A stretch of DNA of 64,000 nt from Verrucomicrobiota bacterium (GCA_039815375.1 JBCBZJ010000003.1:203512-267511), one strand, 5' to 3'. Positions 12,366 through 52,457 are shown, numbered from the stretch's first letter. The notes: generated by a model from the sequence alone, not told the origin. Program-made: numbers and translations.

Positions 12366-13346
12366 ATGCGGACACTGTTGTTTTGGAACAGGGAGCTGGT
12401 AACGCGCTTTGTTGTTTTATTTTTCGTATTATCTTTTTGTAGTTCGGCTCGCGCAGTGAGATCGATCCGTTTTCAACCGGACTGGTTTCCTAATGGGCAA
12501 TTCGCTGGATTCTTTTTAGCGGCAGAAAATGGCTACTATGAAGAATACGGGTTTTCTGTAGACTTTGCCGGATTCGGATTTGGAGTCGATTTTGTGGAGG
12601 AGGTTGTTTCGAAGCGTGCGCATTTTGGAACCATTGAAAGCTACATTTTTCTTGATCGCGTTGCGAAGGGGGAACCGCTTGTTGCCATTGGAGCGGTGCT
12701 CGCGACAAGCCCTGCGGGATACATTTATTTGAAGTCTTCCGGGATCGAGGAGTTTGCCGACCTCAAAGGTCGATTGCTTGGTGTGCACAATTATGCGGAA
12801 GGGCTTGTGCAACTCTTCGAAAAAGAAGCAGGATTAACTTTCGGAGCGGTCAATTTGAAGAAGGTTGAACATGATCTATCAATCCTTCTCGACGGGCAGG
12901 TTGATGCACACCAGGGCTTTGCTATAGACGAGATGCTTAGCTTGCAAAAAAAGACTGAAGAAGCAGTCGATATTCTTTTGTTTGAGGAGCTTGGTTTGCC
13001 AATGTATTCAATGGTTATCTATACTTCGAGAGAGACCTTGGCTGAAGAGCCGGAGATTGTAGAAGGCTTTCTCGAAGCGACGGCCAAGGGCTGGTCTAAG
13101 GCAATAGATCAGCCGGAGAAAGCGGCTGTCGTTATCAGCGAAAAGCATCCGCATCCTGAAGTAAAGGACACGATCTTAGCGGAGCAGATCAAGATGATTG
13201 GCGATTTTATTAATCTTGATGCTGCGAATCCGAAAATGCGCACAGAGCTAGAGCGTTGGGAATCCATGCAAAAAGCCTTTATCCAAAGTGGCTTGCTGGC
13301 AGAACCTGTAGATTTGAATACGTGTGTCCTGAATGAAAGAGACTAG
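12366..13346 (+). CDS. NMT1/THI5-family ABC substrate-binding protein
   Basis: Signal peptide, then FQPDWFPNGQFAGFFLAAENGYYEEYG; FLEATAKGW motif. Confidence 0.88.
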   Translation: MRTLLFWNRELVTRFVVLFFVLSFCSSARAVRSIRFQPDWFPNGQFAGFFLAAENGYYEEYGFSVDFAGFGFGVDFVEEVVSKRAHFGTIESYIFLDRVAKGEPLVAIGAVLATSPAGYIYLKSSGIEEFADLKGRLLGVHNYAEGLVQLFEKEAGLTFGAVNLKKVEHDLSILLDGQVDAHQGFAIDEMLSLQKKTEEAVDILLFEELGLPMYSMVIYTSRETLAEEPEIVEGFLEATAKGWSKAIDQPEKAAVVISEKHPHPEVKDTILAEQIKMIGDFINLDAANPKMRTELERWESMQKAFIQSGLLAEPVDLNTCVLNERD

Positions 13347-13369: not shown

Positions 13370-14314
13370 CTAGGGAGTTTTGAGAACTGCTGTTTCTTTG
13401 AGGTAAGCAGTAATGGCATCTAGCTCCGTATCTCCGAAATCCTTGTGGCGGGGCATGATCGTATCGGGATAGACTGTCTTTGGGTCAACGATGACGGAGC
13501 GAAGGTAGGCCTCGTTGTATTGAGCATGTGTTTGAAGGATGATAAAAGGACGCTCTGCAACATTGCCACCTACACTTCCGGGCCCGAGATGGCAGGTGCT
13601 ACATCGTTGTAGAAAGATTTGCCTTCCCGATCGGGCAATCTTGCTAAGCTGATCCATCGGAGGAGCGAAGTAGGGTGCGTATCGCTCTTCCGTATTTACC
13701 GCACGTATCCCTGACATTTGTGTCGCGGAGATCATGCCGAATTTCGGTGATTCCGGATAGCTGTCGAGCTGACCGTCGATAAAGACATAAAAAGGTTCCA
13801 GCGGTTCAATGTTACCTCCGAACCACGGCCAATTCCCGTCTTTGGGGCTTTCATTATTGTAGTAGAGCAGTAGCAGTGGATTCTTCTCTTCAATGTAGCT
13901 GATCTCCATGAAACTTTCCCAGCGGTCGGTGCATTCGAGCACGAGTCCGTCGCCGTGACTTTGGAGTCCGAGCAAATTGATTAGAGACTTGAGCGGGATG
14001 ACACCAAGTTGCGCTTTGCCAGCTTTGGGAACAATCTCGGATTCAATGAGCTTGTAACCATCCAGTTTGGCGAGATCACTTCTTGTCAGATATCCGTCCT
14101 TAGATTGCCAGGCTCCCGAAAAAAATAGTGAATCCTCCGCAGGCTTTTCAGATCGAAGAGTCAATCGACTTTCGGACCCTTGTGATGATGTGCAAAATAG
14201 TAAGGCTGAAAATACGATCCACAGAGCATTCGGAGGAAAAAAAGCTCTTGCTGAACCGCGAAGAGGCTTAGTCCAGAGCGGGCTTTGCCCAAGCATATCT
14301 ATTCGCATTCGCAA
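13370..14314 (-). CDS. Exported protein: sulfite-oxidase-fold (PruR-like) domain fused to C-terminal class I cytochrome c
   Basis: Signal peptide; GRQIFLQRCSTCH heme motif with distal TIMP Met; N-domain pattern LTRSDL..L / GVIPLKSLI / ECTDRWES / LEPFYVF; paralog of 21590-22495. Confidence 0.75.
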   Translation of the reverse strand: MRMRIDMLGQSPLWTKPLRGSARAFFPPNALWIVFSALLFCTSSQGSESRLTLRSEKPAEDSLFFSGAWQSKDGYLTRSDLAKLDGYKLIESEIVPKAGKAQLGVIPLKSLINLLGLQSHGDGLVLECTDRWESFMEISYIEEKNPLLLLYYNNESPKDGNWPWFGGNIEPLEPFYVFIDGQLDSYPESPKFGMISATQMSGIRAVNTEERYAPYFAPPMDQLSKIARSGRQIFLQRCSTCHLGPGSVGGNVAERPFIILQTHAQYNEAYLRSVIVDPKTVYPDTIMPRHKDFGDTELDAITAYLKETAVLKTP

Positions 14315-14382
14315 AGACTTTCTCCTCGAAGGCTTAAAATTTTGAAGTCTGGTAGAGCCTCGATCTCGAGGTATAAAAATAA

Positions 14383-14409
14383 GGTCGGGCGACAGATTGC
14401 CGCCCGACC
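14383..14409. terminator. GC-rich hairpin, probable terminator/attenuator after the second TonB receptor gene
   Basis: GGTCGGGCG-ACAGATTGC-CGCCCGACC with T-rich tracts following on both strands. Confidence 0.65.
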
Positions 14410-14431
14410 AGTTTTTTTTAACAAACCCCGA

Positions 14432-16945
14432 CTAGAATTTGTATTTGAAGGAAAAGATGTAAGTCCGCTCGGGTGCTTTTGTGACCAGTGTATTCGCTGC
14501 GAAAACCGGATCAGAGCCGAGGAAGTAATCCTCATCCGTCAGGTTTTCGATTGAAGCGCCGATCTCCCATTTTTCAGTGGAGTACTTTGCTCCGATACCA
14601 AAAATTAGTGCATCCGGGAGTTCAATTTGATGGTCAAAATCGAGGAAAAACTCTTCCTGATAGATCATGCTTGCGGTGATCTCAAAACCGTTCTCGAAGT
14701 CGTATGCAGCGAATAGCTTGAAGACCTGCTCAGGCGTTCCGGGATAGACAAGGTCGGTGTTCTCGGGAGGAATGCCGAAATTACCGTCAACGTAACGGTC
14801 GCGACCATCAAAGCTACCAGTGCCGAAGTTGCTGTTGAGTTCTCCTCCATATAAAGCCCAGTCCGCTTCAGAGAAGGGGATTGTCCGAAACGGCAATGGA
14901 TCCAGGCGCCTTACTTCCTGGGAAGTAAAGGAACCGATAACAGTAAGCTGGTCCGTGACGAGCCAGGTAGCTTCAACTTCGATGCCATCTCCTTCGAGGG
15001 CCTCACTTGCACCGCTGCGTCCGTTGAATGCACTTTGCTCCCACTCATAGTAGGCGATTGACGCGTAGAGTTTGTTGTCCAGCAGACCTGCTTTGACCCC
15101 AACTTCCCACATTTCGTTATCAGCAAAGTTCGCTTCGCCAACGACTGCACCACCTTGGGTTGGATCCATCGATGTGCCCTCTTGATAATTGCCGTATAGG
15201 AATACCCCTTCGATCGTCTCAAGGTTGAAACCGAGACTGAAATTGATGAAATCCGTATCTCCGTCTCCGTCGTCTTCGAAGGCTATAATGTCCAGCGGAT
15301 CAACTGACTGAAGCTCTGAAGGAACATCGGCATCGAATTCTGCGATCTCACCACGAACCGATGCATTAATAGTAAGGCGATCGTCCAGAAGCTTTGATTG
15401 GCTGTTGGCGAATAAGGCATATTGCATAAGCTCGGATTCAACGTTGCCGCCGATTCCGCCGAAACCACCATCCCAGAAGTTTACTCCGTCAAGAGTGGTC
15501 TGGCCACCTGCAAGAATAATCGAGTTCGCGCTGATGATTGGTTGAGTGATGTCACGACGACTGAATGGCTCGACCCAAAAGTCCTGAAGTTGCTTCGCAT
15601 CAGTGTAGCGTAAACTTACACCTAGATTGACGGTGGTGAACGGGATCAACGTGCGCTCTGTTATGAAAGCTTTGGTCGCCAGAACGGTCTGCTCCGAGTC
15701 AAAGGCATACCCATACGAAGAAAGTTTTTCAGTTTCAAGCGACTCGGCTAAGCCCTTGATTGTAAAGATTCGATCCGAATTGGAATCGAAGACCAAATCA
15801 CCAAACAGGACGATGTTGGTCGAATCAGCGAAGTCACTTGGGTCCGTTAGCACCTCATTCCCGTCAATAGACTGCGTGACGGCCTGACCCCCGTTATCAA
15901 AATACTGTTGAGTGTAGACGTATTTTTCAACCCCGTCGGAATCCACAATGAACGCCATGTCATTGATATCGCCAAACTGAGGAACCAGTGCCTCAGCGAC
16001 TGATCTCTCGAGGGCAAGTGCTACGTCATTACTCACCTGATTCCGATCGGCAAATCCAAGATTGTTACCGTTGGTGATGTTGATCGCCTCGCCAATCACA
16101 TACTGTCCATCATCGATAAGCTCTTGTGTGGGTCGGTTCCAACCAGCGTTTTCGTTTGATTTATAATCAAAATACTCTCCGCCGACAAAAACGGACATCC
16201 CATCTTTTGGACGGAACTTCATGGATGCATAGACCGAGGTGAAATCGTTCGCAAAGTTATCGTAATAACTCTCACCGTCCTGACTCGTTATCGAAACTCG
16301 AAAGGCGGCTGGTATTTCACCCGGGAGGAGAAAAGGGGAGCCATAATCTGCAGTGACCGTCTTTCGCCCCCAGTTATCCACTTCAAGTTCGATTGAACCG
16401 GATTCTTCGTCGAAGAATGGCGACTTCGGGATCAGGTTGACAAAACCGCCAACAAGCGTCGGTGAATAATCAGCAGGCGCAGGACCTTTGACGACTTCGA
16501 TCGCCTCCAACGAACCGAATGACAAAGGCATCTCATTCCGATTAAAGGCACGAAGCATTCCGTTAAGGTAAGTGCCGCCCCTTACGCCACGAATTGTAGG
16601 TGCTCCCGGCACGCCGTAGTAGTTGATTGCCTGGGTTCCGGCGCCGATCTTCTCAAGGTCTCGAAGGTCATCAATGTTGAACTTGTCGAGGATCTCAGGT
16701 GAAAGGAGTGTGACCGAGCGCGGCACTTCAAAAACGCTTACCGAGTCCCCAAAGAGCCCGGATATCTCCCGATCTGTAGGCATCACCGTATCGACAAGCG
16801 CCGATTCGGTTTCGTTGAGGATGAAGGTTTCAAGGACGATGGTTTCATCTTCCTCGTCCGCAAGGAGCGAACTGATTCCAACGGCTGGTAGCAAGAAGAT
16901 GCATCGAAGCATCTTCGAGGTCTGTATTCGCATATTGGCTGTCAT
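14432..16945 (-). CDS. TonB-dependent receptor (non-iron substrate likely)
   Basis: 837 aa, signal peptide, plug (VPRSVTLLS, IEVVKGPAP, GGFVNLIPK), ENLTDEDYF, C-terminal YKF; embedded in NMT1/deaminase island. Confidence 0.9.
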   Translation of the reverse strand: MTANMRIQTSKMLRCIFLLPAVGISSLLADEEDETIVLETFILNETESALVDTVMPTDREISGLFGDSVSVFEVPRSVTLLSPEILDKFNIDDLRDLEKIGAGTQAINYYGVPGAPTIRGVRGGTYLNGMLRAFNRNEMPLSFGSLEAIEVVKGPAPADYSPTLVGGFVNLIPKSPFFDEESGSIELEVDNWGRKTVTADYGSPFLLPGEIPAAFRVSITSQDGESYYDNFANDFTSVYASMKFRPKDGMSVFVGGEYFDYKSNENAGWNRPTQELIDDGQYVIGEAINITNGNNLGFADRNQVSNDVALALERSVAEALVPQFGDINDMAFIVDSDGVEKYVYTQQYFDNGGQAVTQSIDGNEVLTDPSDFADSTNIVLFGDLVFDSNSDRIFTIKGLAESLETEKLSSYGYAFDSEQTVLATKAFITERTLIPFTTVNLGVSLRYTDAKQLQDFWVEPFSRRDITQPIISANSIILAGGQTTLDGVNFWDGGFGGIGGNVESELMQYALFANSQSKLLDDRLTINASVRGEIAEFDADVPSELQSVDPLDIIAFEDDGDGDTDFINFSLGFNLETIEGVFLYGNYQEGTSMDPTQGGAVVGEANFADNEMWEVGVKAGLLDNKLYASIAYYEWEQSAFNGRSGASEALEGDGIEVEATWLVTDQLTVIGSFTSQEVRRLDPLPFRTIPFSEADWALYGGELNSNFGTGSFDGRDRYVDGNFGIPPENTDLVYPGTPEQVFKLFAAYDFENGFEITASMIYQEEFFLDFDHQIELPDALIFGIGAKYSTEKWEIGASIENLTDEDYFLGSDPVFAANTLVTKAPERTYIFSFKYKF

Positions 16946-17229
16946 TGTGTTGTTGGTTCGTGGTTAGTTGTTAGTCGAATCATAAAATGGAAAGTGATTA
17001 ACGGGTGGTGATGCCTGACCGCTTGTAGATGCCTGACGACAGGCATCGCTCTAAAGGCAACAAGCGAAACACGAACCGCTGAAAAATACTCTCGAACCTC
17101 CCTGCAGTATTTTTGCAGGTGGAGAATTACTTTCAGGTTGCGAGGGAAAAGGCTCCTCGCAGCCTGAAGTCCCATTGGCGATGCGGTGGTCATTGTTGGA
17201 TCATTTTTGCGCGGCCGAGACCACGTCTC

Positions 17230-17275
17230 GGAGCAATGACCCGCACGAATTTTTCGCGCTGACTGCTTCTACTCC
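17230..17275 (-). ncRNA. NMT1-motif (xanthine-I) riboswitch-like aptamer
   Basis: Minus strand GGAGUA-GAAGC-AGUCA-GCGCGAA-AAA-UUCGUGC-GGGUCA-UUGCUCC has an outer stem, GAAGC junction and inner hairpin. It matches the layout I recall for NMT1-motif RNAs (GGAGUAGAAGC..UCAGCG..GC..AUUGCUCC). It sits at the predicted 5' end of the receptor mRNA. Confidence 0.7.
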
Positions 17276-17289
17276 TAAGCGATTAATTG

Positions 17290-17305
17290 AGCTTAAGTCG
17301 TGCCA
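17290..17305 (-). promoter_or_regulatory. sigma54 promoter for riboswitch-TonB receptor transcript
   Basis: Minus strand TGGCACGACTTAAGCT (TGGCAC-N5-AAGC, GG-N10-GC); predicted TSS ~17279, ~4 nt before the aptamer. Confidence 0.7.
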
Positions 17306-17355
17306 TTCGAGTCCTAATGGTGATTTTTTGAATAAATATCACCTGATTCACTCAA

Positions 17356-18375
17356 TCATTTCTGGAAGGAAGCATCAAATCGCGTAGGCAGGAACTTGAG
17401 TGGAGCGACTTCATCAACTGTCATTTCCTTGTCGAGAAGGCCAATTTCGCTGAGTGTGTTAATCTGGTCTTGTATCCTGCTTTCACGGATCAGTCCGGTT
17501 TCGTCGATTTGATTCCTTCCGCTGATCAACGCGTTCTCCTTCATTGCGCTCAAACTATAAGCGAGAAACTCGTCAGTCATTTTTGGATTCAACGATGCGA
17601 TTTCGGCATTCGCTTTTTCCCGAGGCCCTTTCATGTAGCTCTCCCATCCGCGGATTGATGCAGCAATGAATGCCTTTACGATCTCAGGCCGATTTGTGGC
17701 AAGCGCTCGGCTCGTGTAGATTACGCGGTAAGGATCAAAGCCTGTATCCGCAAGCAGGAGCGTCCGCGTCGGCGTGTCTTCCTTAGCCATGTAATAAGGC
17801 TCGTTTGTGATAAAGCATTGTTGGATGAACTCCGGATCGCTGATAAATCGACTCATGCCGTAGTCGAGTGGAATGACGTCGACATCAATGTCGAACTTCC
17901 GACGCAGGACATCGACAAAGACCGCTCCCGGTGTGGTCATGATCTTCTTTCCGTCGAGGTCGCCGAATTCTTTTACATCGCTGCCAGCGTGGACAAGCAG
18001 AGCTTGGGGATCGTGCTGCATAAATGAGCCGGTAATGACAAGAGGAACTCCGCGCGCCGACTGAATGATGATGTCGTCACTACGGCCGATCGCAAAGTCG
18101 GCATTCTTGCTCGCTACCTTTTGGTAGGTCATCGCGTTCGGGCCGCCCTGATTGATGGTTACGCTAAGGCCAACTTCTTCATAGTAGCCTTCGGCTACGG
18201 CTTGGTAGAAGCCACCGTGCTCGGCTTGTGCATACCAATCGGTCTGCAGAACGATCCGGGTGAGCCCATTCTCGTCGGTTGTTTGCTTCTTCCCGCAGGC
18301 AGAAAACGCGAGCAAGATAAAGAGAGCAGTCGTGGTTCGAATGAGTGCTTGGATTTTGTTTTCGAAGATCTTCAT
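17356..18375 (-). CDS. NMT1/THI5-family ABC substrate-binding lipoprotein
   Basis: Lipobox-like FSAC; LQTDWYAQAEHGGFYQAVAEGYY motif. Confidence 0.9.
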   Translation of the reverse strand: MKIFENKIQALIRTTTALFILLAFSACGKKQTTDENGLTRIVLQTDWYAQAEHGGFYQAVAEGYYEEVGLSVTINQGGPNAMTYQKVASKNADFAIGRSDDIIIQSARGVPLVITGSFMQHDPQALLVHAGSDVKEFGDLDGKKIMTTPGAVFVDVLRRKFDIDVDVIPLDYGMSRFISDPEFIQQCFITNEPYYMAKEDTPTRTLLLADTGFDPYRVIYTSRALATNRPEIVKAFIAASIRGWESYMKGPREKANAEIASLNPKMTDEFLAYSLSAMKENALISGRNQIDETGLIRESRIQDQINTLSEIGLLDKEMTVDEVAPLKFLPTRFDASFQK

Positions 18376-18392
18376 GATCGGATGCAGGATTG

Positions 18393-19214
18393 TTAGTTGA
18401 CTTCGGACTTTCGAACCGAGTCGTGCCAGTTCTTAAGAAGATACCAGTGCAACAGGTTAACACAGCCCACGAAGATGAAGCCCAAAAGGCAGGCGACAAA
18501 AGCTGTGGCAAAGAGTTCTGGAATCTTCAGTTGCGAGTTGTAAACGATGACCATGAATCCGATGCCACCAACGCCACCCTGCGAGCTACCGGCAAAAATA
18601 TCTCCGGTAATTGCACCGATTGGAGCCAGTGTTCCCGCTATCTTCATCCCGGTCAGGAAGTAGGGCATCGCGTAGGGGACGCGCAGATAGATGATCTCCT
18701 GGGATTTTGTTGCGTTACACATTTCCATCAGGTCGAGCAGGTTTCGGTCAGTTGAGACAAGTCCCATCGTGGTGTTTGCGACGACAGGAAAGAACCCGAT
18801 AAGAAATGTGATTACAGTGATACTGGGAACGCCCTGCCCGAACCAAAGCACGAAGATCGGTGCAAGAACGACTACCGGTGTCATCTGAAGAACAAGCACC
18901 CAAGGATAGAGGCTTTGCTTTACCCATACTGCTGAGGCAAGGATCATCGAGAGCACATAACCCACGACAACCGCCATCAAAAATCCCAGAACCGCAGTGA
19001 AGGCCGTCTGACTGGCAGATGCCAGAAGCACCGCTCGTTCGGCGATCAGTGCATCAAAAATCTGGTGCGGGAATGGAATGACAATGCGCTGGGTATCAAA
19101 GCCCTCCGCTTGGCCGTATGCATAGGAAATAGAATACCAAATCAGAAGAATCGCTGCGCCCGAGATGATCGGCAGCATCCAGAATTGATTATGCTTCCAG
19201 ATTTTCGTCACCAT
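18393..19214 (-). CDS. ABC transporter permease (SsuC/TauC type)
   Basis: QMTPVVVLAPIFVLWFG, FFPVVANTTMGL, LRVPYAMPYFLTGMK. Confidence 0.92.
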   Translation of the reverse strand: MVTKIWKHNQFWMLPIISGAAILLIWYSISYAYGQAEGFDTQRIVIPFPHQIFDALIAERAVLLASASQTAFTAVLGFLMAVVVGYVLSMILASAVWVKQSLYPWVLVLQMTPVVVLAPIFVLWFGQGVPSITVITFLIGFFPVVANTTMGLVSTDRNLLDLMEMCNATKSQEIIYLRVPYAMPYFLTGMKIAGTLAPIGAITGDIFAGSSQGGVGGIGFMVIVYNSQLKIPELFATAFVACLLGFIFVGCVNLLHWYLLKNWHDSVRKSEVN

Positions 19215-19217
19215 AAA

Positions 19218-19991
19218 TCAGTGCACGGTTCGAATTGCATGTGAGACTCGAGCAACGTAGTCGAGATATTCGCGTGTCTCTCGCAGCTCGGCATTGCGTT
19301 CTTGAGGCAGGTCGATTTCGATGACTTCTGAAATTCGACCCGGGTTTGCCGCGAGGACGATAATCTTCGTCGACAGGAAAACCGCTTCGGCGGCAGAGTG
19401 CGTCACAAAAAAGGCGGTCCATTGGTCGCGGGCATGTATTTTCAAAAGATCCTCGTTCAGATAATCCCGCGTCATTTCGTCCAAAGCACCAAACGGTTCG
19501 TCGAGGAGGAGGACCCGTGGCGAGAGCGTAAGAGATCTCGCGATGGAAACGCGCATCCGCATACCACCGGAAAGTTGCCAGGGGTAGCGATCGGTTGCAT
19601 GAGAGAGATTTACGAGATCGAGCATCTTTCTCGAGGTTTCAATCCTTCGGGATTTTTCGATGCCGCGAAGTTTGAGAGGCAGTTCAACGTTCCCCAGGAC
19701 ACGACGCCACGGGAGTAGGTTCGCCTCTTGAAAAATGAAGGACATTTCTTCGCGGGCATTTTTCGGAGTCATCCCATCCACCACGACATTGCCCTCAGTG
19801 ACCGAATATAGCCCGGCAATGATTTTCAAAAGCGTCGATTTGCCGCATCCACTTGGTCCAACCAAACTAATGAATGCACCTTTTTTCGCGCGGAAGTTGA
19901 TGTTATCGAGGACGGTTGTGTCGCCGAAGCGTTTTACAACGGACTCTAATTTAACCATCAGGTGGTCGGAAAATGGGCTTGGATCGCTCAC
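19218..19991 (-). CDS. ABC transporter ATP-binding protein (SsuB/TauB type)
   Basis: Walker A GPSGCGKST, LSGGMRMR, LLLDEPFGALD, FVTH. Confidence 0.95.
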   Translation of the reverse strand: MSDPSPFSDHLMVKLESVVKRFGDTTVLDNINFRAKKGAFISLVGPSGCGKSTLLKIIAGLYSVTEGNVVVDGMTPKNAREEMSFIFQEANLLPWRRVLGNVELPLKLRGIEKSRRIETSRKMLDLVNLSHATDRYPWQLSGGMRMRVSIARSLTLSPRVLLLDEPFGALDEMTRDYLNEDLLKIHARDQWTAFFVTHSAAEAVFLSTKIIVLAANPGRISEVIEIDLPQERNAELRETREYLDYVARVSHAIRTVH

Positions 19992-20060
19992 GATCTAAGA
20001 CGGACCACAACGGTCTTGTGTTCTACAACCATCTCGGTTCGTTCAATTTATATTTTCGGC

Positions 20061-21452
20061 TTAGGCGCTTGCTGCAGTCGTCGCAAACGGGTTTTTCTCG
20101 TAGGTTGCCATCTTCCCGGGATTCATGAGTGCCTTCGGGTCAACTTCATCTTTCAACGCACGCTTCTCGACAATGTCATCGTGCACACCACCTCCTTCCA
20201 TGGTGAAGGTGTGAGGATTTGCGACACCCACACCGATACTTTCGCAGTAGTCGATGATCTCATTGAGGCGCGCTTCGTTCTTATACCGGATCAAGGGAAT
20301 GCCGCCGACCGCCACACCGGTTTTCTCCTGTTTGAATTTTGAGTTTCCAAGCGTCAATTCGAGGTGCATCAAAAACTCGTCGCCGAACTTTGCCTTCAAC
20401 TTGTCGAGATTACCTTTGTAGTCCTCTCCAAATCCGCACTGGAGATAGGTCATGCTCGGATCCGCCTTGATCGCCCAAAGGGTGGTGTGGTTCCAGGTAT
20501 AGTCTGTGATAAAGGGCGGTTTGGGCGGTTCGCCAAAGGGCTTGGAAAAGACGTTTGCAATGCCCTTTTTCTCCGCCGATGCAATCACCTGCTCTGCGTC
20601 CGGCATGTCGACCATAAGAAATGAACTGTGGACGCCCTCGGGAATGTATTTCTTCAAAGGTTTGAAATAGCTCGAGATCGGATCTTCGAAAACTGTCACT
20701 AGCCGTTTTGGAATGTCCGGCTCTTCAGCAATCTCATAGCTCCAGTCGAGTAGATGATGCCAGTCATCATGGGTGAAAATCATCTGTTGCCAGGGATAGG
20801 CTTTTGCAAGACGCATCTCTGCCTCGACCATAATTCCGGTTGTGCCGTAGGTGTGAAGTGCTTTGATGCAATCACGCTCCTCCAGCTTTATGAAGCGCGG
20901 CTCTGCCTCCATAGTCATCAAAGTGACCGACTTCATATTATCCTCGTAGGCAATCCCCCCGTTTCTAATCGAACCGATTCCTCCGGAGCCTCCACATAGA
21001 AAACCACCGAACGAGCTGATTGCCCAGGTCGAAGGCATACAGCGGAGCTCCCAGCCTTTCTCTCGTGCAGCGAGTTCAATCTTACGAAGGGTTGCCCCAA
21101 CTTCAGCATGTGCCACACCATCGACATTATAAATAGTATTGAGCCCCATCAAGTCGATGACGGCACCTCCATATAGAGGAATGAGCTGTCCGTAATTACC
21201 GGAACCGCCTCCACGGAGTGTGACGGGCACCTCGTTTTTGTAGAGCAATGAAACCACACTCCTTAGTTCCTCCTTGCTTTTCACAAGTAGTGCGACCTCC
21301 GCTTTTTTCTCTTCAAGGAGCGCTTTCAGGACCGGCGAATACCAGTAGAAGTCCTTGGAATACTTCTCGGTCTTTTCTCCGGTTACAATCTGGTCTTCAG
21401 GCAATAGCTCGCCAAGTTGAGCGAGCACACTTTGGCTAATTGTTTTTGTCAT
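20061..21452 (-). CDS. FAD-binding oxidoreductase (VAO/PCMH, FAD_binding_4 family)
   Basis: RGGGSGNYGQ, GGFLCGGSGGIGS, HTYGTTGI, DPKALMNPGK; start moved to ATG 21452 because sigma54 motifs lie inside the longer ORF. Confidence 0.85.
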   Translation of the reverse strand: MTKTISQSVLAQLGELLPEDQIVTGEKTEKYSKDFYWYSPVLKALLEEKKAEVALLVKSKEELRSVVSLLYKNEVPVTLRGGGSGNYGQLIPLYGGAVIDLMGLNTIYNVDGVAHAEVGATLRKIELAAREKGWELRCMPSTWAISSFGGFLCGGSGGIGSIRNGGIAYEDNMKSVTLMTMEAEPRFIKLEERDCIKALHTYGTTGIMVEAEMRLAKAYPWQQMIFTHDDWHHLLDWSYEIAEEPDIPKRLVTVFEDPISSYFKPLKKYIPEGVHSSFLMVDMPDAEQVIASAEKKGIANVFSKPFGEPPKPPFITDYTWNHTTLWAIKADPSMTYLQCGFGEDYKGNLDKLKAKFGDEFLMHLELTLGNSKFKQEKTGVAVGGIPLIRYKNEARLNEIIDYCESIGVGVANPHTFTMEGGGVHDDIVEKRALKDEVDPKALMNPGKMATYEKNPFATTAASA

Positions 21453-21476
21453 GGTAGTCGAATCGATAAGGACATA

Positions 21477-21510
21477 AGCAGTTTTTCTGCCATTCGCAAG
21501 AGTGTGCCAA
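21477..21510 (-). promoter_or_regulatory. Tandem sigma54 promoters for oxidoreductase-ABC operon
   Basis: Minus strand TTGGCACACTCTTGCG (21495-21510, consensus) directly followed by TGGCAGAAAAACTGCT (21477-21492). Confidence 0.8.
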
Positions 21511-21561
21511 TTTGACGGCAACTCGGACGCAAGTTGTTATGATGCCAAGTCTGAACCGGAT

Positions 21562-21578
21562 TTGGTATGTCAACTGCT
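21562..21578 (+). promoter_or_regulatory. Divergent sigma54 promoter
   Basis: TTGGTATGTCAACTGCT, GG-N10-GC, upstream of the cytochrome c/SBP/deaminase genes. Confidence 0.65.
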
Positions 21579-21589
21579 AATCGTTCCGA

Positions 21590-22495
21590 GTGAAATCTTT
21601 TCGACTACCGATTTCTCAGGTCGCTGGAACCTGCTGTATTCTTTTTCATTCTGTTTCTCCGCTTCTACTTGCCGTTGCGCTTGGAGCTATGATCGCGGCG
21701 ATTACCTCGGTTAGGGCGGAAGCGGCATCGACCACAGAATCAGCAACTAGTCTGGACCTACTGGTTGAGTTCGCCGGTAGCGACCGCGAACCAATCACCA
21801 TACCTCGCGAGAAGCTCTATACAATGGGGGTGGAAAAGGTCGAAGTCATGATTCCCTACGCAGAAAAAACGGTGACCTGTACAATTCTGCCGGTTCGTAA
21901 GCTCTATGCCTATCTCGAAGTGGATCACTCGATTGCATCAGCAGCTGAAAGTTATGACGGATATTATTCAATCTACCCGACAAAATTTGTTCAGGACTAT
22001 GATCCTTATTTGGTTCTCGATTTCGACGGAGTGGAGAAAGGGAGCCTGAAGCTCGAAGGCACGCCGGAGCTTGGTCCGTTTTATATTACTTTTGCCGCTC
22101 CGCTTGTGCAGGGAAGTGATGAAATGCCGGATCCAGACAATAAGCGTCCATTTGGTGTTACAAAAATGACGCTGGGTAGCTACGACGATCTGCTTGGTTT
22201 CATGTATGAGGGTGCTTTTGCCAATCTCGATGCAGCAGCGAAATATGGAAGAGAGCTTTACACGAACAACTGCATGAGCTGCCACGCCTGGACCGCTGAA
22301 GGCCCCGGAGGAGTCTTCTCAAACCGGACCGCCCAGATTCTCTCTGTGCACGCCAAGTTCAATCGGGATTATTTTAGTAAATACATCATCAACCCGACCC
22401 AATTTATTCCCGATGTTAAAATGCCGAAACACCCGCACTATGCCGATGAAGAGATCGATGCGCTCATTGCTTTCCTTTCCAAAATTGAAATCTAG
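21590..22495 (+). CDS. Exported protein: sulfite-oxidase-fold (PruR-like) domain fused to C-terminal class I cytochrome c (paralog 2)
   Basis: GRELYTNNCMSCH and VKMP; N-domain IPREKL..M / ESYDGYYSIYP / PYLVLDFDG / LGPFYITF; start uncertain (GTG 21590 or ATG 21689). Confidence 0.75.
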   Translation: MKSFRLPISQVAGTCCILFHSVSPLLLAVALGAMIAAITSVRAEAASTTESATSLDLLVEFAGSDREPITIPREKLYTMGVEKVEVMIPYAEKTVTCTILPVRKLYAYLEVDHSIASAAESYDGYYSIYPTKFVQDYDPYLVLDFDGVEKGSLKLEGTPELGPFYITFAAPLVQGSDEMPDPDNKRPFGVTKMTLGSYDDLLGFMYEGAFANLDAAAKYGRELYTNNCMSCHAWTAEGPGGVFSNRTAQILSVHAKFNRDYFSKYIINPTQFIPDVKMPKHPHYADEEIDALIAFLSKIEI

Positions 22496-23486
22496 TCCGA
22501 AGATTTGGTTTCCTGGTGCTTTGGCCCTTGCACTCGGAATTATGCTCGGTTGTGAGACAGTCGACGAAAACGAGGAAACTGCAGGGCTTGAAATGGAAAA
22601 AGTCGTTATGCAGTTCGACTGGATTTTTAACGCGCAGTTTGCGGGTTTTTACCAGGCGGTCGAGCAGGGCTTTTTTGCAGAGGAAGAGATCGAGCTTGAA
22701 ATGCGAGGAGGGCCAACTACGCCGCATATTGTTGATGGAACCCTGAATGAGCCAGCGATCAGCTTCGGAAGCTCCGAGAGTAATGTCCTCATTGCAGAGG
22801 CTGCTATGGGTAAGGATCTAAGGATCATCGGAACGATGTTCCAGTCTTCCCCGATGGGCTGGATGTATGTTCGCGGTAACGAGATTGAGAGCTTCACTGA
22901 TCTGGCTGATAAGCGAGTGGGTGTCCATGATGACGGCTGGCGGGTCATCAAGCTCCTCCTTCAGAAGCAGGGCGTCGATATTTCCAATTTGGAGACCTTC
23001 AACTGTGACTACGATCCGAAAGTGATACTCGAAGGCGAGGCAGATGCGATGCAGTGCTATTACATTGATGAGTTCGTAAAGCTGGAGCAGATGATCGGTG
23101 AGAAGGCCGGGGTCTTTCTGGCTCGGGACTTCGGATATGATGCATTCTCACAAGTGATGTTTACACATGCCGAAACAATTGAAAAGTATCCTGAAGTTGT
23201 TGAAGGGTTTCTCCGTGCGGTAAAGAAAGGGTGGGCCCATGCTTTTGAGAATCCCGAGGAAACAGTCGATCTGATCATCTCTAAATATAGTCCTGAGCTT
23301 GATCGGGACTATCAGCTCGGTTCTCTCGCAAAGATTGAGGAACTTATGGTTCCCGATGGCGGCGAGCTTCTGCAGCCAATTGAAAGCTCTGTTCTTACCG
23401 CTGGCCAGGAGCATCTTTTGAAATACAAGCTTATTGAAGGGACAGTCGACTTCGATAAAATCCTTCAGCAACAGTTCCTGCCTTAG
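22413..23486 (+). CDS. NMT1/THI5-family ABC substrate-binding lipoprotein
   Basis: Lipobox MLGC; MQFDWIFNAQFAGFYQAVEQGFF; true start probably ~22485. Confidence 0.88.
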   Translation: MLKCRNTRTMPMKRSMRSLLSFPKLKSSPKIWFPGALALALGIMLGCETVDENEETAGLEMEKVVMQFDWIFNAQFAGFYQAVEQGFFAEEEIELEMRGGPTTPHIVDGTLNEPAISFGSSESNVLIAEAAMGKDLRIIGTMFQSSPMGWMYVRGNEIESFTDLADKRVGVHDDGWRVIKLLLQKQGVDISNLETFNCDYDPKVILEGEADAMQCYYIDEFVKLEQMIGEKAGVFLARDFGYDAFSQVMFTHAETIEKYPEVVEGFLRAVKKGWAHAFENPEETVDLIISKYSPELDRDYQLGSLAKIEELMVPDGGELLQPIESSVLTAGQEHLLKYKLIEGTVDFDKILQQQFLP

Positions 23487-23599: not shown

Positions 23600-24892
23600 G
23601 TGACAGCAACTCTATATAAGAACGCGCAAGTTCCATCTGCTTTACTCAGTATCCCTGTAGAGGGAATCGCCGAGCCATCGACGGTTTGCGATATCGTAGT
23701 AGCGGAGGGTAGGATTATAGAGATCGCGGAACCGTGTTCTGTGAATCGCACTGACGTGACAGTTGTCGACCTTGACCAGCGGATTGTTTTTCCCGGATTT
23801 CTTGATGCACATGTGCATATCGACAAGGCTTTCAGTTGGGAACGTGCGCCAAATGTCCGTGGCGAATTTTGGGATGCGATCGAACTACTGGGTAAGGACA
23901 AGGATAACTGGACTGCGGAGGATCTTTACCAGCGGGGAACCTTTGCACTGCGATGCGCCGAAGCAAATGGCACTGTTGCGATCAGGACACATGTGGACAC
24001 TTGGATAGGAGGAGGCGAGGTAAGCCATGCAGCGATGCAAACGCTGCGGGAGGAATGGTCCGGTCGCATCCAACTTCAAACTGTGAGCCTTGCCGGCATC
24101 GATCAATACATGGAGCCGGGTGGCCGACGTATGGCTGAGTTTACGATGAGTTATCCGGACTCGCTTTTGGGGGGCATGCCGCAGATGAATCCCGATCTTG
24201 ATCAGCAACTCGACTATTTCTTCGACCTTGCTGCCGAGTATGGCGCTGCGGTCGATTTGCATGTCGATGAAAACGGAAATCCGTATGCCGAATGCCTGCG
24301 CAAAGTTGCTGAAACTGTCCTCCGAAAAGAGTTTCCGCATCCGGTCACCTGCGGGCATGTGTGTAGCCTCGCCGTGCAGGATCCGGAGCGAGCGCTTTCG
24401 ACGCTGCAACTGGTCAAAGAAGCAGGTATTCAAATCATTTCCCTGCCGATGTGTAATCTCTACCTTCAAGGTCGGCCTGCGGAGTCCGGACGGCGCGGCA
24501 CACCTCGCTGGCGAGGGGTCACTCTGCTTCACGAAATGATTGAAGCTGAGATACCTTTTGCCTGTGCCAGTGATAATGTCCGCGATGCGTTCTACGCTTG
24601 GGGTGACTTTGATATGTTCGAAGTCTTTACCCAGAGTATTCGTATCGCTCATTTGGATACAGAAATGGATGCGGCGTGCCGTGCGGTGACGGCTTCGGCT
24701 GCCGATATCATGGGTCTCAAAAATTTCGGATCGATTGAGGTGGGCGCCGATGCGCGACTGGTGGCGTTCGATTCCCGCACGTTCAACGAACTTCTATCAC
24801 GACCAACTCAATCACGTCAGCTCCTGGGCTTTAATTCTGCCGCAGGCAAGAGCCCCGATTACAGCGAACTTGGTGAATTAAAGCGCGTCTGA
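23600..24892 (+). CDS. Cytosine-deaminase-family amidohydrolase (pterin deaminase-like)
   Basis: DAHVHIDK, AIRTHVD, DLHVDE, GHVCSL, ASDNVRDAFYAWGDFD, and the TPRWRGVTLLHE motif of the CodA-like subgroup that clusters with FAD oxidoreductase and creatininase genes. Confidence 0.85.
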   Translation: MTATLYKNAQVPSALLSIPVEGIAEPSTVCDIVVAEGRIIEIAEPCSVNRTDVTVVDLDQRIVFPGFLDAHVHIDKAFSWERAPNVRGEFWDAIELLGKDKDNWTAEDLYQRGTFALRCAEANGTVAIRTHVDTWIGGGEVSHAAMQTLREEWSGRIQLQTVSLAGIDQYMEPGGRRMAEFTMSYPDSLLGGMPQMNPDLDQQLDYFFDLAAEYGAAVDLHVDENGNPYAECLRKVAETVLRKEFPHPVTCGHVCSLAVQDPERALSTLQLVKEAGIQIISLPMCNLYLQGRPAESGRRGTPRWRGVTLLHEMIEAEIPFACASDNVRDAFYAWGDFDMFEVFTQSIRIAHLDTEMDAACRAVTASAADIMGLKNFGSIEVGADARLVAFDSRTFNELLSRPTQSRQLLGFNSAAGKSPDYSELGELKRV

Positions 24893-24919: not shown

Positions 24920-25426
24920 ATGATACTCATTCGACTTTCAAAAATCCTGCCCGTCCTATCGGTCGCGTTTTTCCTGTTTCTTGTCGTTCTCAACAACCTG
25001 ACGGACTACGGCTCGAACTACCTCTTCGTGGAGAACGTATTGGGTATGACGACTGTCTTCGAAGGCAACCAGCTGATGTGGCGTGCGATTGAAAGTCCTC
25101 TGGTCCATACGGCTTTCTATTTTTCGATCATCCTGTGGGAGGCGGCGGCAATGGCGCTGTGCGCATGGGGTGGATGGAAATTGCTTCAGGTCATCAAGGG
25201 CTCGAAGGCGGAATTTGAGGCTGCAAAGCAAATCGCGATCGCCGGGATTGTCTTGAGCATGCTGCAGTGGTTTGTGGCCTTCATAACGGTTGGCGGCGAG
25301 TGGTTTACGATGTGGCAGTCACAAATCTGGAACGGACAGGATGCCGCCTTCCGCATGTTTGCCTGTCTCGGGATTATACTTATCTTCCTTTATCTGCCTG
25401 AATTCGGAGAAAAGGAAGATGCTTAG
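24920..25426 (+). CDS. DUF2165-family small integral membrane protein
   Basis: NNLTDYGSNYLFVENVLGM, WRAI, GGEWFTMWQSQIWNGQDAAFR. Confidence 0.85.
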   Translation: MILIRLSKILPVLSVAFFLFLVVLNNLTDYGSNYLFVENVLGMTTVFEGNQLMWRAIESPLVHTAFYFSIILWEAAAMALCAWGGWKLLQVIKGSKAEFEAAKQIAIAGIVLSMLQWFVAFITVGGEWFTMWQSQIWNGQDAAFRMFACLGIILIFLYLPEFGEKEDA

Positions 25427-25509
25427 TCGATTTACGAGCTTTGGCCGGTTCGTCCGTAGATCTTAATAAGACGCGTGTTTTGAGTATGGGATATGCTTTG
25501 AAAAAAGAA

Positions 25510-26967
25510 ATGAGAATGACAAGGCTTTGGCTTCGAGCTACTCAGGTTCTGCTTATCCTGTTATTTTTTGATTTTCAGGCCGATGCCGTTACATGGGTCC
25601 GTTCCGACTGCATTCTGACCCTTGCAGATGGTGAGGAGACCCCGATCAATGGCTACCTGAAGATCAGTTCCGAGGGGACAATTGTTGCGATTGAAAGTGG
25701 TGATATTCCCGACGGCGTTACCGGGCGATTTGTGGATGCAATGGGGAAGATCGTGATGCCGGGCTTCGTTTCGGGGCACAACCATCTTTGGCAGAGTGCG
25801 TTTCGAGGTCTGGCAAGTGATCAAGAGCTCTATGGTTGGTTGGAGAGCCTTCACTGGACCTACGGCGATTTCTTCGAAGAGGACGACATGTATACTTTTA
25901 CGCTGTACGGCGCACTGGATCAGCTGGGCCATGGAATCACGACAACGCTTAATCATACCCAGAATATTGCGCCCACGTATGCTCACTATCTCGAGCAATT
26001 CGATGCAGAAATGGACGCGGGGCAGAACTTTGTCTTCTCATATGTGCTCGACCGTAATGAAAAAGACCCGGCACGCCGAAAGGCAAAGTTGGTCGAGCTA
26101 ATGGAGGCAACCGAGGCGATCGAAGATCAACATCCTTGCCTTGGGTTTGGTTTACATGGCGTAGGGGTTTATTTCAGTGCCGAGGTTCACCGCGAAGAGG
26201 TTGCTATCGCCAAGGAGCTCGATCTGGACATGCAGATCCACTACCTTGAAGAAAAAGACCAATCGCTGAAAAAAGGACAAAGTCAGTTTGCTGATCTCCA
26301 TGCGGATGGTGGTGTCTGGGACGGTTTGGTTTATGCGCACTTCATTCACGTAACGGATGAGATTTTGAAGACCTCGGCGGAGGCGGGTGCAAAGATGATT
26401 TGGAATCCTCTCTCAAACGGTCGGTTGGCATCGGGTCTTGCCGATATTCCGCGCTACCTCGATGAAGGTCTTTTGATCGGGATGGGTGTTGACGGAACTG
26501 CCAGTGCCGACGTCTGTGACCCATTCCAAAATATGCGGATGGGTATGTATGCGCTTCGAATGCGCGATTCCGAGGCCAGCGTTATGTCGTGCTATGAGGT
26601 GCTACGACTTCACACCTTGAAAACTGCGGAAGTGCTCGAGGTCGAAGATCGAGTTGGTAGTCTGGAGGTCGGGAAGTATGGGGATTTTCTTGTTGTTGAG
26701 CCAGAGTCTCCGGTTTTTGACCCCTATGCTTCCCTCGTGATGGCGACCAGTGCCGGGGATATTTCTGGAGTCTGGGTTCGCGGTATCGAGCGAGTGCGCC
26801 GAGGAAAGCTGACTGAACATTCGATGAGCAAAGTGAAGAAAGAGATGGTCACCCGCGTTGCGCGAATCGTGGCTGCACAGAAAGTTTCGGCTCAAATGAG
26901 TGGGGGGACTCTTTCGGGCACCTCGGTTTTTCCGGGATGTTTTGGGTGCTGCGGATTGGGGCACTAA
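25510..26967 (+). CDS. Exported amidohydrolase of the guanine/8-oxoguanine/isoxanthopterin/SAH deaminase group
   Basis: MPGFVSGHNHLWQ, QIHYLEE, AHFIH, WNPLSNGRLASG, GMGVDG; signal peptide MRMTRLWLRATQVLLILLFFDFQADA from ATG 25510. Confidence 0.85.
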   Translation: MRMTRLWLRATQVLLILLFFDFQADAVTWVRSDCILTLADGEETPINGYLKISSEGTIVAIESGDIPDGVTGRFVDAMGKIVMPGFVSGHNHLWQSAFRGLASDQELYGWLESLHWTYGDFFEEDDMYTFTLYGALDQLGHGITTTLNHTQNIAPTYAHYLEQFDAEMDAGQNFVFSYVLDRNEKDPARRKAKLVELMEATEAIEDQHPCLGFGLHGVGVYFSAEVHREEVAIAKELDLDMQIHYLEEKDQSLKKGQSQFADLHADGGVWDGLVYAHFIHVTDEILKTSAEAGAKMIWNPLSNGRLASGLADIPRYLDEGLLIGMGVDGTASADVCDPFQNMRMGMYALRMRDSEASVMSCYEVLRLHTLKTAEVLEVEDRVGSLEVGKYGDFLVVEPESPVFDPYASLVMATSAGDISGVWVRGIERVRRGKLTEHSMSKVKKEMVTRVARIVAAQKVSAQMSGGTLSGTSVFPGCFGCCGLGH

Positions 26968-28423: not shown

Positions 28424-28816
28424 TTATTTTGCAGGTGCTGCCGCGACGACTTCGATTTCGACGGTAAACTCCTCTCTGGCAAAGCCGGAAACGATGACCA
28501 AGGTTGAAGCGGGAGCTGGTTCGGAAAAGAGTTCGTCACGAACTTTCATGTAGGCAGGCAGGTGTTCCCGTCCGGTAACGAAGGCATTTATCCGAACGAT
28601 ATCCGCCAGATTCATATCTGCGGAGTTGAGAATTGCTTCGACATTTTCGAAACAGAGCCGGGTCTGGGTTTCTGTATCCTCCGGGATTTTTCCGCTCTTT
28701 GTAATTCCGAGTTGGCCCGAGCAAAAAAGGAGCCGAGATCCTTCAGGGATTTCAAGCCCGTGGCTGTATTTTGCGAAAGGGGCGATAATCTCATCTGGCG
28801 TGTGATGTTTGAACAT
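28424..28816 (-). CDS. RidA/YjgF/UK114 family protein
   Basis: YSHG, LFCSGQLG, PASTLVIVSGF, VEIEVVA; ATG at 28816. Confidence 0.9.
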   Translation of the reverse strand: MFKHHTPDEIIAPFAKYSHGLEIPEGSRLLFCSGQLGITKSGKIPEDTETQTRLCFENVEAILNSADMNLADIVRINAFVTGREHLPAYMKVRDELFSEPAPASTLVIVSGFAREEFTVEIEVVAAAPAK

Positions 28817-28878
28817 AGTTTCCCAATTAGGGAGCACTTCAAATACCAATTCGACTATCTACTGATGAAGTGATGAAT

Positions 28879-28895
28879 CTGGTATGGAAGTAGCT
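28879..28895 (+). promoter_or_regulatory. sigma54 promoter of creatininase-family gene
   Basis: CTGGTATGGAAGTAGCT, GG-N10-GC; near-identical to the element at 30927-30943. Confidence 0.6.
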
Positions 28896-28907
28896 CGAAT
28901 GGCAGGC

Positions 28908-29714
28908 ATGGCTACAGAACGCTTTCTCCCCCACATGACTTGGCCCGAGATCAAGAATCTCGATAAAACGAATGCTCTGGTCATTCTTCCGGTCGGGGCA
29001 ACCGAGCAACACGGCCATCATCTTCCGGTCTATACGGATACGCTGATCAGTTCAGGAGTTTTGAGACGGGCTCTGGAAGTCTTACCCGAAGAAGTTCCAG
29101 CCTACATGCTTTCACCGATTACCATTAGCAAAAGCAACGAGCATCGCGGATTTCCAGGGACGCTTTGGATTAGTGCCAAGACGCTCTATGACGTCCTCTT
29201 TGAGATTGGCCGAAGCGTTTATGAATCGGGCTTTCGGAAGATGTGTTTTTTTAATGGGCACGGCGGAAACGTGGGTATTCTACATGCCGTGACTCGCGAC
29301 ATCAGGGATGAGTTTGGCATGACGGTCTTTGCGGGATCGGCCGGCACTTTTCTTGAGTCTCCTGAATTGCCGGACGGGGTCGATGCGCGCGAGAAGAAAT
29401 TCGGAATTCACGCGAACTTTGGAGAGACGGCCCTGATCAAGGCTCTGGCTCCCGAACTCGTTAAGGAGGACAAAGCTCGACCTTGCTTCCCGAACTATCC
29501 GGATTCAGGCATTGGTCTGGTCGGTCCGGGCTACGCACAGTGGAAGACAGAAGACTGGTCATCGACCGGCGTCTTCGGTGACCCGACTCATGTCACCGAA
29601 GAAATCGCAGCAGATTATTTGGACCGTGCCGTCAAAGGAACAGTTCGCTTCCTTACCGAGATGGTTGATTTCGAATATGATCGTCCCAAGATCCAGGATC
29701 GACCTGTAGATTAA
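28908..29714 (+). CDS. Creatininase-family amidohydrolase
   Basis: LPVGATEQHGHHLPVYTD, SNEHRGFPGTL, FNGHGGN, GIHANFGET, GVFGDP; start uncertain (28884-28908). Confidence 0.92.
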   Translation: MATERFLPHMTWPEIKNLDKTNALVILPVGATEQHGHHLPVYTDTLISSGVLRRALEVLPEEVPAYMLSPITISKSNEHRGFPGTLWISAKTLYDVLFEIGRSVYESGFRKMCFFNGHGGNVGILHAVTRDIRDEFGMTVFAGSAGTFLESPELPDGVDAREKKFGIHANFGETALIKALAPELVKEDKARPCFPNYPDSGIGLVGPGYAQWKTEDWSSTGVFGDPTHVTEEIAADYLDRAVKGTVRFLTEMVDFEYDRPKIQDRPVD

Positions 29715-47562: not shown

Positions 47563-47575
47563 CCCAAGACAAGCT

Positions 47576-48445
47576 ATGGCTGAGATAATCAAGGCAGGTC
47601 TGATACAGGCTTCATCCACACATTCCGGCGCGGAAGATCCCGGTCTTATTCGCGATGCAATGATCGAAAAACACCTTGCAATGATCGGCGAAGCAGCTGC
47701 CGAAGGTGTTCAAGTGCTCTGTTTGCAGGAGCTTTTTTATGGTCCATACTTTTGTGCGGAGCAGGATATCCGTTGGTATGAGATTACCGAGCAGATTCCT
47801 GATGGGCCCACGACGCAGCTGATGTGTGAGATCGCGAAAAAGCACCAGATGGTATTGATCGTTCCAATCTACGAGGTGGATGTTGAAGGAATCTACTACA
47901 ATACCGCCGCAGTGATCGATGTGGATGGTACCTATCTCGGCAAATATCGGAAGAATCATATCCCGCATTGTCATCCTGGTTTTTGGGAGAAATTCTACTT
48001 CCGCCCGGGTAATCTCGGCTATCCTGTTTTCAAGACCAAGGTCGGAACGATAGGCGTTTATATCTGTTACGACCGGCACTTCCCGGAAGGTGCCCGGGCG
48101 CTTGCGCTGAACGGGGCTGAGATGGTGTTTAATCCATCGGCGACAGTTGCAGGCCTCAGTGAGTATCTCTGGAAGCTGGAGCAACCGGCACACTGCGTGG
48201 CGAACGGGTATTTCCTCGGAGCAATTAATCGTGTCGGGACAGAGGCACCCTGGGGTATCGGCGAGTTCTACGGACAGTCGTATTTCTGTAATCCTCGTGG
48301 GCAGCTAATTGCTGAAGCTTCACGGGATCAGGATGAGCTTCTTGTTGCTGACATCAATCTCGCCCAGATCCGCGAAGTTCGCGATACTTGGCAATTCTTT
48401 CGGGACCGCCGTCCGGAATCCTACGGCCCCCTGGTTCAGCCCTAG
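47576..48445 (+). CDS. Beta-ureidopropionase (nitrilase superfamily)
   Basis: [42 protein letters not shown]; operon context; ATG at 47576. Confidence 0.88.
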
Positions 48446-48465
48446 TAAAAATCGGTTTCGTTTTT

Positions 48466-49797: not shown

Positions 49798-49815
49798 ACA
49801 AAAGAAAGGAAAAAT

Positions 49816-50943: not shown

Positions 50944-50947
50944 AGGA

Positions 50948-52441: not shown

Positions 52442-52457
52442 CCCCAAGTTACATACC

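Follow-up and report, generated by a model that had tools for sequence, protein, structure and literature searches.

Two PruR-fold/cytochrome c fusions in a Verrucomicrobiota gene cluster: candidate metal-free periplasmic pterin:cytochrome c oxidoreductases

We analyzed a 64,000-nucleotide stretch of the genome of a Verrucomicrobiota bacterium (GCA_039815375.1 JBCBZJ010000003.1:203512-267511; hereafter the window) that carries two genes, 13370-14314(-) and 21590-22495(+), each encoding a protein (fusion 1 and fusion 2, respectively) in which an N-terminal domain with the predicted fold of the pterin-binding protein PruR, a relative of the sulfite oxidase (SUOX) fold, is joined to a class I cytochrome c. 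A pterin-shaped pocket and a His/Met heme on one exported chain, in a cluster tied to importers, suggest oxidation of a reduced pterin whose product is passed on. The best reading of the sequences and models, although a tentative one, is thus that the fusions are periplasmic reduced-pterin:cytochrome c oxidoreductases serving heterocycle scavenging. In its widest form, which we hold at less than even confidence, the proposal is that these are widespread metal-free "sulfite oxidases" in which free pterins bind as substrates at what was the molybdenum cofactor (Moco) site; such enzymes would harvest electrons from excreted pterins and set their redox state, and would be coupled here to the first candidate TonB/ATP-binding cassette (ABC) pterin import route and to a DUF2165 membrane partner.

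Both genes are intact open reading frames (ORFs), and each encodes an N-domain of about 150 residues followed by one CxxCH motif with a distal Met (CSTCH at 238-242 and M287 in fusion 1; CMSCH at 228-232 and M278 in fusion 2). The shared architecture described in an earlier note on this DNA, with an export signal, an N-domain, a single CxxCH and a distal Met, therefore stands, export being a prediction. Pfam and NCBIfam recognize only the cytochrome domain in both proteins (PF00034 and PF13442 above cut-off, i.e. class I monoheme cytochrome c), a PDB search with a single sequence retrieved cytochromes only, matches in the ESM Atlas were confined to unnamed cytochrome clusters, and the family is annotated merely as "cytochrome c". 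In an alignment of 128 proteins spanning both domains (91 from the best 150 of 694 matches, a list whose remainder was fragments or matches to the cytochrome domain alone), the distal Met is kept in 127 rows. Export signals were predicted from hydropathy only; the N-terminus is hydrophobic in 88 of 96 full-length rows, and a Tat motif was found in none of the 96. As a rule, Moco enzymes are exported by Tat, whereas Sec exports c-type cytochromes. The fusions are predicted to be Sec-exported and are likely periplasmic.

The N-domain was identified by structure prediction. AlphaFold2 models had a mean predicted local distance difference test score (pLDDT) of 84.2 for fusion 2 (28 sequences) and 73.5 for fusion 1 (13 sequences), and for both models the top seven Foldseek matches were PruR (E from 7.5e-7 to 1.3e-5 for fusion 2 and from 1.2e-5 to 1.6e-4 for fusion 1), with YedY and sulfite oxidases below. 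With VIA, a search independent of Foldseek over 48,161 chains, the first two matches of the fusion 2 model were again PruR, with Z scores of 16.6 (7kp2; root-mean-square deviation 2.5, 133 aligned residues) and 15.2 (7rkb), ranking above SoxC (13.2), SorA (12.6) and YedY (9.2), while residues 214-300 matched class I cytochromes with Z up to 8.0 (1w2l). By sequence alone, an 80-row family profile matched PruR (7kos) with E=5e-11. The SUOX-fold, PruR-like N-domain proposed in the earlier note is thereby borne out as a predicted fold, PruR being a better match than YedY for both models. The Pfam family PF00174 has no match in either fusion or in the genome; 7 of 86 relatives match it below the cut-off.

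The ligand-contacting residues of PruR can be followed into both fusions. In PruR, the pterin ring lies between Y104 and W160, with N102, and P69-W70 occupies the place at which, in SUOX enzymes, a longer hairpin bears the Mo-ligand Cys (PMC11194511). In our profile alignment, P69-W70 corresponds without a gap to P89-Y90 of fusion 2, and N102, Y104 and W160 correspond to D123, Y125 and F188; the equivalents in fusion 1 are D130, W132 and T198, so that by alignment its second stacking aromatic is missing. Within PruR, Asp in place of Asn at the pocket is also seen in groups C and D (PMC13259868). Across the 128 rows, D123 and an aromatic residue (Y/W/F) at 125 are each kept in 127, W/F/Y at 188 in 83 and the P-aromatic motif in 28 only, and Thr occupies 188 in 29. 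Where 125 is Trp, 188 is always a small residue (T/S/A, 26 of 26 rows), which marks the fusion 1 clade as a second pocket type. From these residues we infer pterin binding, strongly for fusion 2 and more weakly for fusion 1. No row has a Cys in the hairpin columns 82-96, and the hairpin is as short as in PruR (27-28 residues in 101 rows; 27 in PruR). The earlier description of the domain as lacking a Mo-ligating Cys is therefore right, whereas "Cys-less" holds for that site only: fusion 1 has C128, in a C-x-D motif, and fusion 2 has C97.

In the proposed mechanism, the PruR-fold domain would hold a reduced pterin, electrons would pass from the pocket to the fused heme c, and the net direction would be oxidation of the pterin. 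Scavenged pterins would be oxidized ahead of the neighboring importer and deaminase, the product being handed to the NMT1 protein, and the heme would be re-oxidized by a respiratory oxidase or through DUF2165. Such an enzyme would resemble SorAB or a heme-bearing sulfite oxidase minus the metal center, with the pterin itself as redox substrate. The chemistry is feasible, given that no enzyme is needed for tetrahydrobiopterin to reduce ferricytochrome c (PMC10215290); PruR prefers tetrahydromonapterin (PMC11194511).

The two fusions were called paralogous in the earlier note, and they are indeed homologous over both domains. BLASTP aligned them with 23% identity over 291 columns (E=8e-19); most of this signal comes from the C-domains (score 159 vs 24 ± 5 for shuffles, reached by 0 of 500), that of the N-domains alone being weak (46 vs 29 ± 4.5, reached by 2 of 500), and the profiles of the two subfamilies align across both domains (224 columns, 99.89% probability). 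They do not, however, stem from a recent duplication: they are old out-paralogs in separate clades (support 100/99), and constraining these clades to group with each other gave a tree that was rejected (p-AU 0.0007, 39 chosen rows).

Close relatives occur in Verrucomicrobiota of the order Opitutales, and the family extends to Acidobacteria (Ca. Sulfotelmatobacter), Elusimicrobiota, Burkholderiales and alphaproteobacterial plasmids (22 records) and Pseudomonas, for which a dedicated search found 2,538 proteins among 8,000 scored, all 120 listed ones matching an N-domain-only model. In another relatives search, 40 of 51 loci (Bacillota, cytochrome domain only) were dropped. Matches spanning the N-domain were present in at least 6 of 301 genomes of the same phylum (at least 26 when cytochrome-only matches are included). 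A Bacteroidota sample gave at least 1 of 301 genomes, and the order of genome G303, which has a distant copy, at least 9 of 201; these are lower bounds, since only the best few candidates per genome were scored. A scan of 86 relatives found 9 with an NMT1 domain at the N-terminus, complete in 6, that is 45-59% identical to the NMT1 protein encoded at 17356-18375 of the window, one is fused to a pterin-4a-carbinolamine dehydratase and belongs to the fusion 1 clade, and one is fused to a SnoaL-like domain. Together with a neighboring deaminase of a type assigned to pterin use, the NMT1 and dehydratase fusions lend context to the proposed oxidoreductase function, which is plausible. Two apparent DUF2165 fusions (P0108, P0137) were rejected because they seem to have arisen by read-through or frameshift between neighboring genes, and a FolB-like pterin-binding fold, suspected by eye in the C-terminal extension of relative P0081, was not confirmed. 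This extension (residues ~306-409 in P0081/P0190) is a domain of about 100 residues on a fusion 1-type protein, without a Pfam or PDB match, whose sister carries the pterin-4a dehydratase.

The two genes lie in a cluster at about 12.4-29.7 kb in which three NMT1 proteins with importers, deaminases and accessory genes surround both fusions (Table 1). As the earlier note had observed, each fusion has an NMT1 neighbor, the gene at 12366-13346 being convergent with fusion 1 and that at 22413-23486 overlapping fusion 2; the third is at 17356-18375.

Table 1 Features of the fusion gene cluster in the window.
Feature	Coordinates	Strand	Remarks
NMT1/THI5-like binding protein	12366..13346	+	Convergent with fusion 1; PF09084 E=3e-38
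Fusion protein 1	13370..14314	-	314 aa; predicted signal peptide, PruR-fold domain, heme c; variant pocket C128/D130/W132/T198; C238/C241/H242, M287
Likely terminator	14383..14409	-	12-bp hairpin and T-rich run in the gap between TonB receptor and fusion 1; read by eye
TonB-dependent receptor	14432..16945	-	Relatives near fusion in several loci
Xanthine riboswitch RF03054 (NMT1 motif)	17226..17279	-	281 nt upstream of TonB receptor ORF; 54.7 bits vs cut-off 36, E=4.4e-9
NMT1 binding protein of ABC importer	17356..18375	-	Subtype fused to PruR-cytochrome module in relatives
ABC permease	18393..19214	-	PF00528
ABC ATPase	19218..19991	-	PF00005
FAD_binding_4 oxidoreductase	20061..21521	-	PF01565; divergent from fusion 2; 38% to rhizobial cluster gene
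Fusion protein 2	21590..22495	+	301 aa; predicted signal peptide; PruR-fold domain res. ~52-198 (P89-Y90, D123, Y125, F188); class I cytochrome c C228/C231/H232, M278
NMT1 binding protein	22413..23486	+	Directly after fusion 2; PF09084 E=1.4e-38
PRK07583 "cytosine deaminase"-like amidohydrolase, candidate pterin deaminase	23600..24892	+	482.5 bits vs cut-off 403; 44% to rhizobial enzymes
DUF2165 small membrane protein	24920..25426	+	Most constant family neighbor in Opitutales and Acidobacteria-type loci
Amidohydrolase, TRZ/ATZ-deaminase group	25441..26967	+	Below all family cut-offs
RidA-family protein	28424..28849	-	PF01042; 50% to rhizobial cluster gene
Creatininase-family amidohydrolase	28884..29714	+	PF02633

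The cytosine deaminase-like amidohydrolase belongs to PRK07583, as Arad3529 presumably does too, and is a candidate pterin deaminase of the Arad3529 type. Rhizobial cytosine deaminase-like proteins are proposed for pterin use because Arad_3529 deaminates pterins (PMC12391406). DUF2165 has many invariant W/M/N/D residues on the periplasmic side and no known function in the literature found; its linkage to the fusion family and to heterocycle catabolism offers a lead to its role. A complex prediction for fusion 2 with DUF2165, heme included, scored 0.00 against a mark of 0.32, which gives no answer and is evidence neither way. The flavin adenine dinucleotide (FAD) oxidoreductase was considered as a flavocytochrome partner and set aside, as its sequence shows no export signal and rhizobia have this oxidoreductase but not the cytochrome. 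Elsewhere in the window, 46168-53876 holds a cluster resembling reductive pyrimidine degradation (Xan_ur_permease, CN hydrolase, class III aminotransferase, dihydroorotate-dehydrogenase-like protein, aldehyde dehydrogenase and amidohydrolase), no ORF of 150 aa or more precedes 5687, and a 16S rRNA gene starts at 62960.

A xanthine riboswitch is found at the same place, before the same TonB receptor, in a second Opitutales genome (G165:C90:9285-9339), while 13 other loci gave no Rfam match for the RF03054 type. Riboswitches of the NMT1 motif turn off genes acting upstream of xanthine (PMC7373994), and the word "TonB" is absent from the main text of that paper; the riboswitch-linked receptor in these two genomes may therefore be an outer-membrane importer of purines or pterins that has not yet been described.

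In the nine Verrucomicrobiota loci of the fusion 2 type (L005 and L061 being left out as near-copies of L001), NMT1, the PRK07583 deaminase and DUF2165 each occur in 7, and NMT1 occurs in 3 of 5 loci of the fusion 1 type. The Acidobacteria-type counts refer to the best 80 of 538 loci, which are close kin: DUF2165 directly follows the fusion in 63 of the 68 loci that extend 300 nt or more downstream, with one identical overlap in 59, and an ABC permease, a creatininase and a FAD oxidoreductase occur in 12, 5 and 5 of the 80, respectively. A 258-aa ORF recurring in 30 of these loci was judged spurious (no Pfam match, overlapping DUF2165 in another frame). In G303, the distant copy belongs to an NMT1/TonB cluster, and the best match of the amidohydrolase encoded there is PDB entry 2paj (E=5e-96), presumably an isoxanthopterin deaminase.

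Other associations were also recorded. L143 (G303:C37) has a distant member with a PRK12393 amidohydrolase, an AtzE amidase, a BiuH-like hydrolase and an unannotated permease-like protein of ~520 aa, the last also present in L142. L060:3007-6828 (G165:C100) has a fusion 1-type copy with an NMT1 protein, a double SnoaL protein, a TonB receptor and two Rieske/VanA_C oxygenases, which we take to be reminiscent of methylxanthine N-demethylases. In two Pseudomonadota metagenome-assembled genomes (MAGs; L008 and L009/L145), a DUF7800/PhoD_N-like protein takes the place of NMT1 after the fusion 2-like gene. Genomes that carry two copies of the fusion also encode, far from these copies, proteins of 535-557 aa in which the GTP cyclohydrolase II domain occurs twice (G180:C1:413842-415176 and G301:C26:105439-106776). 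The host genome (99.89% complete) encodes cytochrome c maturation (two PF01578 matches), MoaA and two subunits of the xanthine-oxidoreductase type.

Several observations weigh against periplasmic pterin oxidation. Reduced pterins autoxidize, so that free substrate may be scarce in oxic settings. The family often occurs without the uptake and catabolism genes of the window, no marker genes being found in any of 14 gammaproteobacterial and plasmid loci, in 3 of 4 Pseudomonadota MAG loci or in 2 of 5 loci of the fusion 1 type, and a comparable rhizobial cluster works without any such cytochrome. The host genome has neither the UbiD decarboxylase of the known lumazine-to-xanthine route nor a match to pterin-4a dehydratase (Pterin_4a). 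The fusion 1 clade has Thr at the W160 equivalent, and the xanthine riboswitch, together with adenosine deaminase (9 of 80) and the urate oxidase N-terminal domain (4 of 80) in Acidobacteria-type loci, points to purines too. Of the supporting domain fusions, the 7 NMT1 fusions tested all group together (94/93) and probably reflect a single event, and the dehydratase fusion comes from a single sequence, on a contig of 1,576 bases.

Alternatively, the pterin could be a resident, recycled redox cofactor or shuttle, the pocket and heme forming a relay with a membrane partner (DUF2165 here), the importer supplying the cofactor and the true substrate being something else. We regard this as possible but doubtful. 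It fits better than pterin oxidation with the coupling to DUF2165, adjacent in most Acidobacteria-type loci and part of the operon in 7 of 9 loci of the Opitutales type, and with the solitary copies in Pseudomonas and Burkholderia that lack catabolic genes; yet the neighbors in the window are importers and deaminases, GTP cyclohydrolase II is near the fusion in none of 5 genomes tested, the 14 gammaproteobacterial and plasmid loci have no DUF2165, the Acidobacteria-type loci are close kin, and the PruR pocket is a shallow surface cleft allowing several ligand orientations (PMC11194511). It seems rather unlikely that the pocket, above all that of fusion 1, instead binds a purine or another N-heterocycle (hypoxanthine/xanthine precursors, urate, lumazine) and oxidizes it or traps it for uptake. 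The riboswitch, conserved before the same receptor in G165, makes purines candidate ligands too, and the distinct Trp125/small-188 pocket, the purine-type neighbors in other loci and the missing UbiD route agree with them. However, a likely terminator lies between the fusion 1 gene and the TonB receptor, the riboswitch unit of G165 has no fusion, the 13 other loci have no riboswitch match, and the only pterin-4a dehydratase fusion falls in the fusion 1 clade. Hydroxylation of purines usually depends on Mo or on a dioxygenase, and a typical His/Met heme is reduced only poorly by urate. Pterin breakdown, moreover, likewise ends in xanthine (PMC12391406).

The two remaining alternatives fit the evidence poorly. 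PruR itself is a non-catalytic periplasmic sensor with the same fold (PMC11194511, PMC13259868), and the earlier note had offered a pterin redox sensor as an option, in which a membrane signaling protein would read pterin binding and heme redox state; this option is weakened, and appears improbable, as the nearly complete genome has no GGDEF match and the shared neighbors include no recurring cyclase or kinase gene (a kinase partner elsewhere in the genome was not searched for). Least credible of all is an unusual molybdoenzyme or Moco carrier using the Cys of the C-x-D motif as metal ligand. The layout of a SUOX fold with cytochrome c is that of a classic sulfite dehydrogenase, the genome makes Moco (MoaA), and a Cys two residues before D123 (position 121) is present in 105 of 128 rows, including C128 of fusion 1. 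This Cys, however, aligns with A100 of PruR and not with the ligand position W70, and it is dispensable, being Ser in fusion 2, while 118 of 120 Pseudomonas members listed have no Cys in the domain; the short hairpin and the lack of a Tat motif speak against Moco as well.

If pterin oxidation is correct, the family could, in mixed communities, shift the PruR-DcpA biofilm signal to another redox state. A 2026 review calls the excretion and uptake of pterins paradoxical, knows of no pterin efflux system and gives no evidence of pterins reacting chemically with PruR (PMC13259868). A PruR-type pocket wired to a heme would be the simplest design for pterin chemistry at such a pocket, and the two pocket types side by side provide a built-in comparison of specificity. 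The uptake-and-catabolism context, the NMT1 fusions, the DUF2165 linkage and the two pocket types are new from this window. We found no paper on a PruR-fold/cytochrome c fusion or its activity in a search of mostly open literature, confined to main texts (Dataset S1 of PMC11194511 and the similarity network of PMC13259868 could include fusions); "cytochrome" is absent from the main text of both PruR papers.

Among known systems, the rhizobial cluster of NMT1-ABC, cytosine deaminase-like, FAD oxidoreductase, creatininase and RidA genes (NZ_CP071679.1) shares seven genes with the window at 30-50% identity, but has no PruR-cytochrome fusion, TonB receptor or DUF2165. MsrP/YedY (1xdq; Z 9.2) likewise has a single periplasmic SUOX-fold domain, but binds Moco via Cys102 and has no heme c. 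Its small membrane-protein neighbor MsrQ is loosely comparable to DUF2165, although DUF2165 is not MsrQ. Pairing a SUOX-fold domain with a heme domain as electron exit is well established in sulfite dehydrogenases and oxidases, and SorAB, SorT-SorU, SoxCD and chicken sulfite oxidase (2blf, 4pw3, 2xts, 1sox) match the fold with Z 10-13; unlike these proteins, the fusions lack the Mo-ligand Cys, the long hairpin, the dimerization domain and the Tat motif, and the proposed substrate is a pterin rather than sulfite. Pterin catabolism in Cupriavidus LA-1 uses a UbiD decarboxylase route (PMC12391406), whereas the window genome has no UbiD. With PruR (Atu3496 of A. tumefaciens, 7kos/7kou; 7kom, 7kp2, 7rkb; PMC11194511, PMC13259868) the fusions share a degenerate SUOX fold (predicted), the short hairpin without Mo-ligand Cys and predicted export and, in fusion 2, the P-aromatic motif at the ligand site, the N/D-x-Y motif and the second stacking aromatic. 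They differ in their heme c and size (~300 vs ~170 aa, 10-18% identity), in the Asp for N102, in the Trp/Thr pocket of fusion 1, and in having uptake and catabolism genes beside them instead of a DcpA/DTB partner gene. The fusion is thus built like both PruR and a SUOX molybdoenzyme and is a member of neither: the fused heme and the absence of a DcpA/DTB operon set it apart from the former, and the absence of the ligand Cys from the latter.

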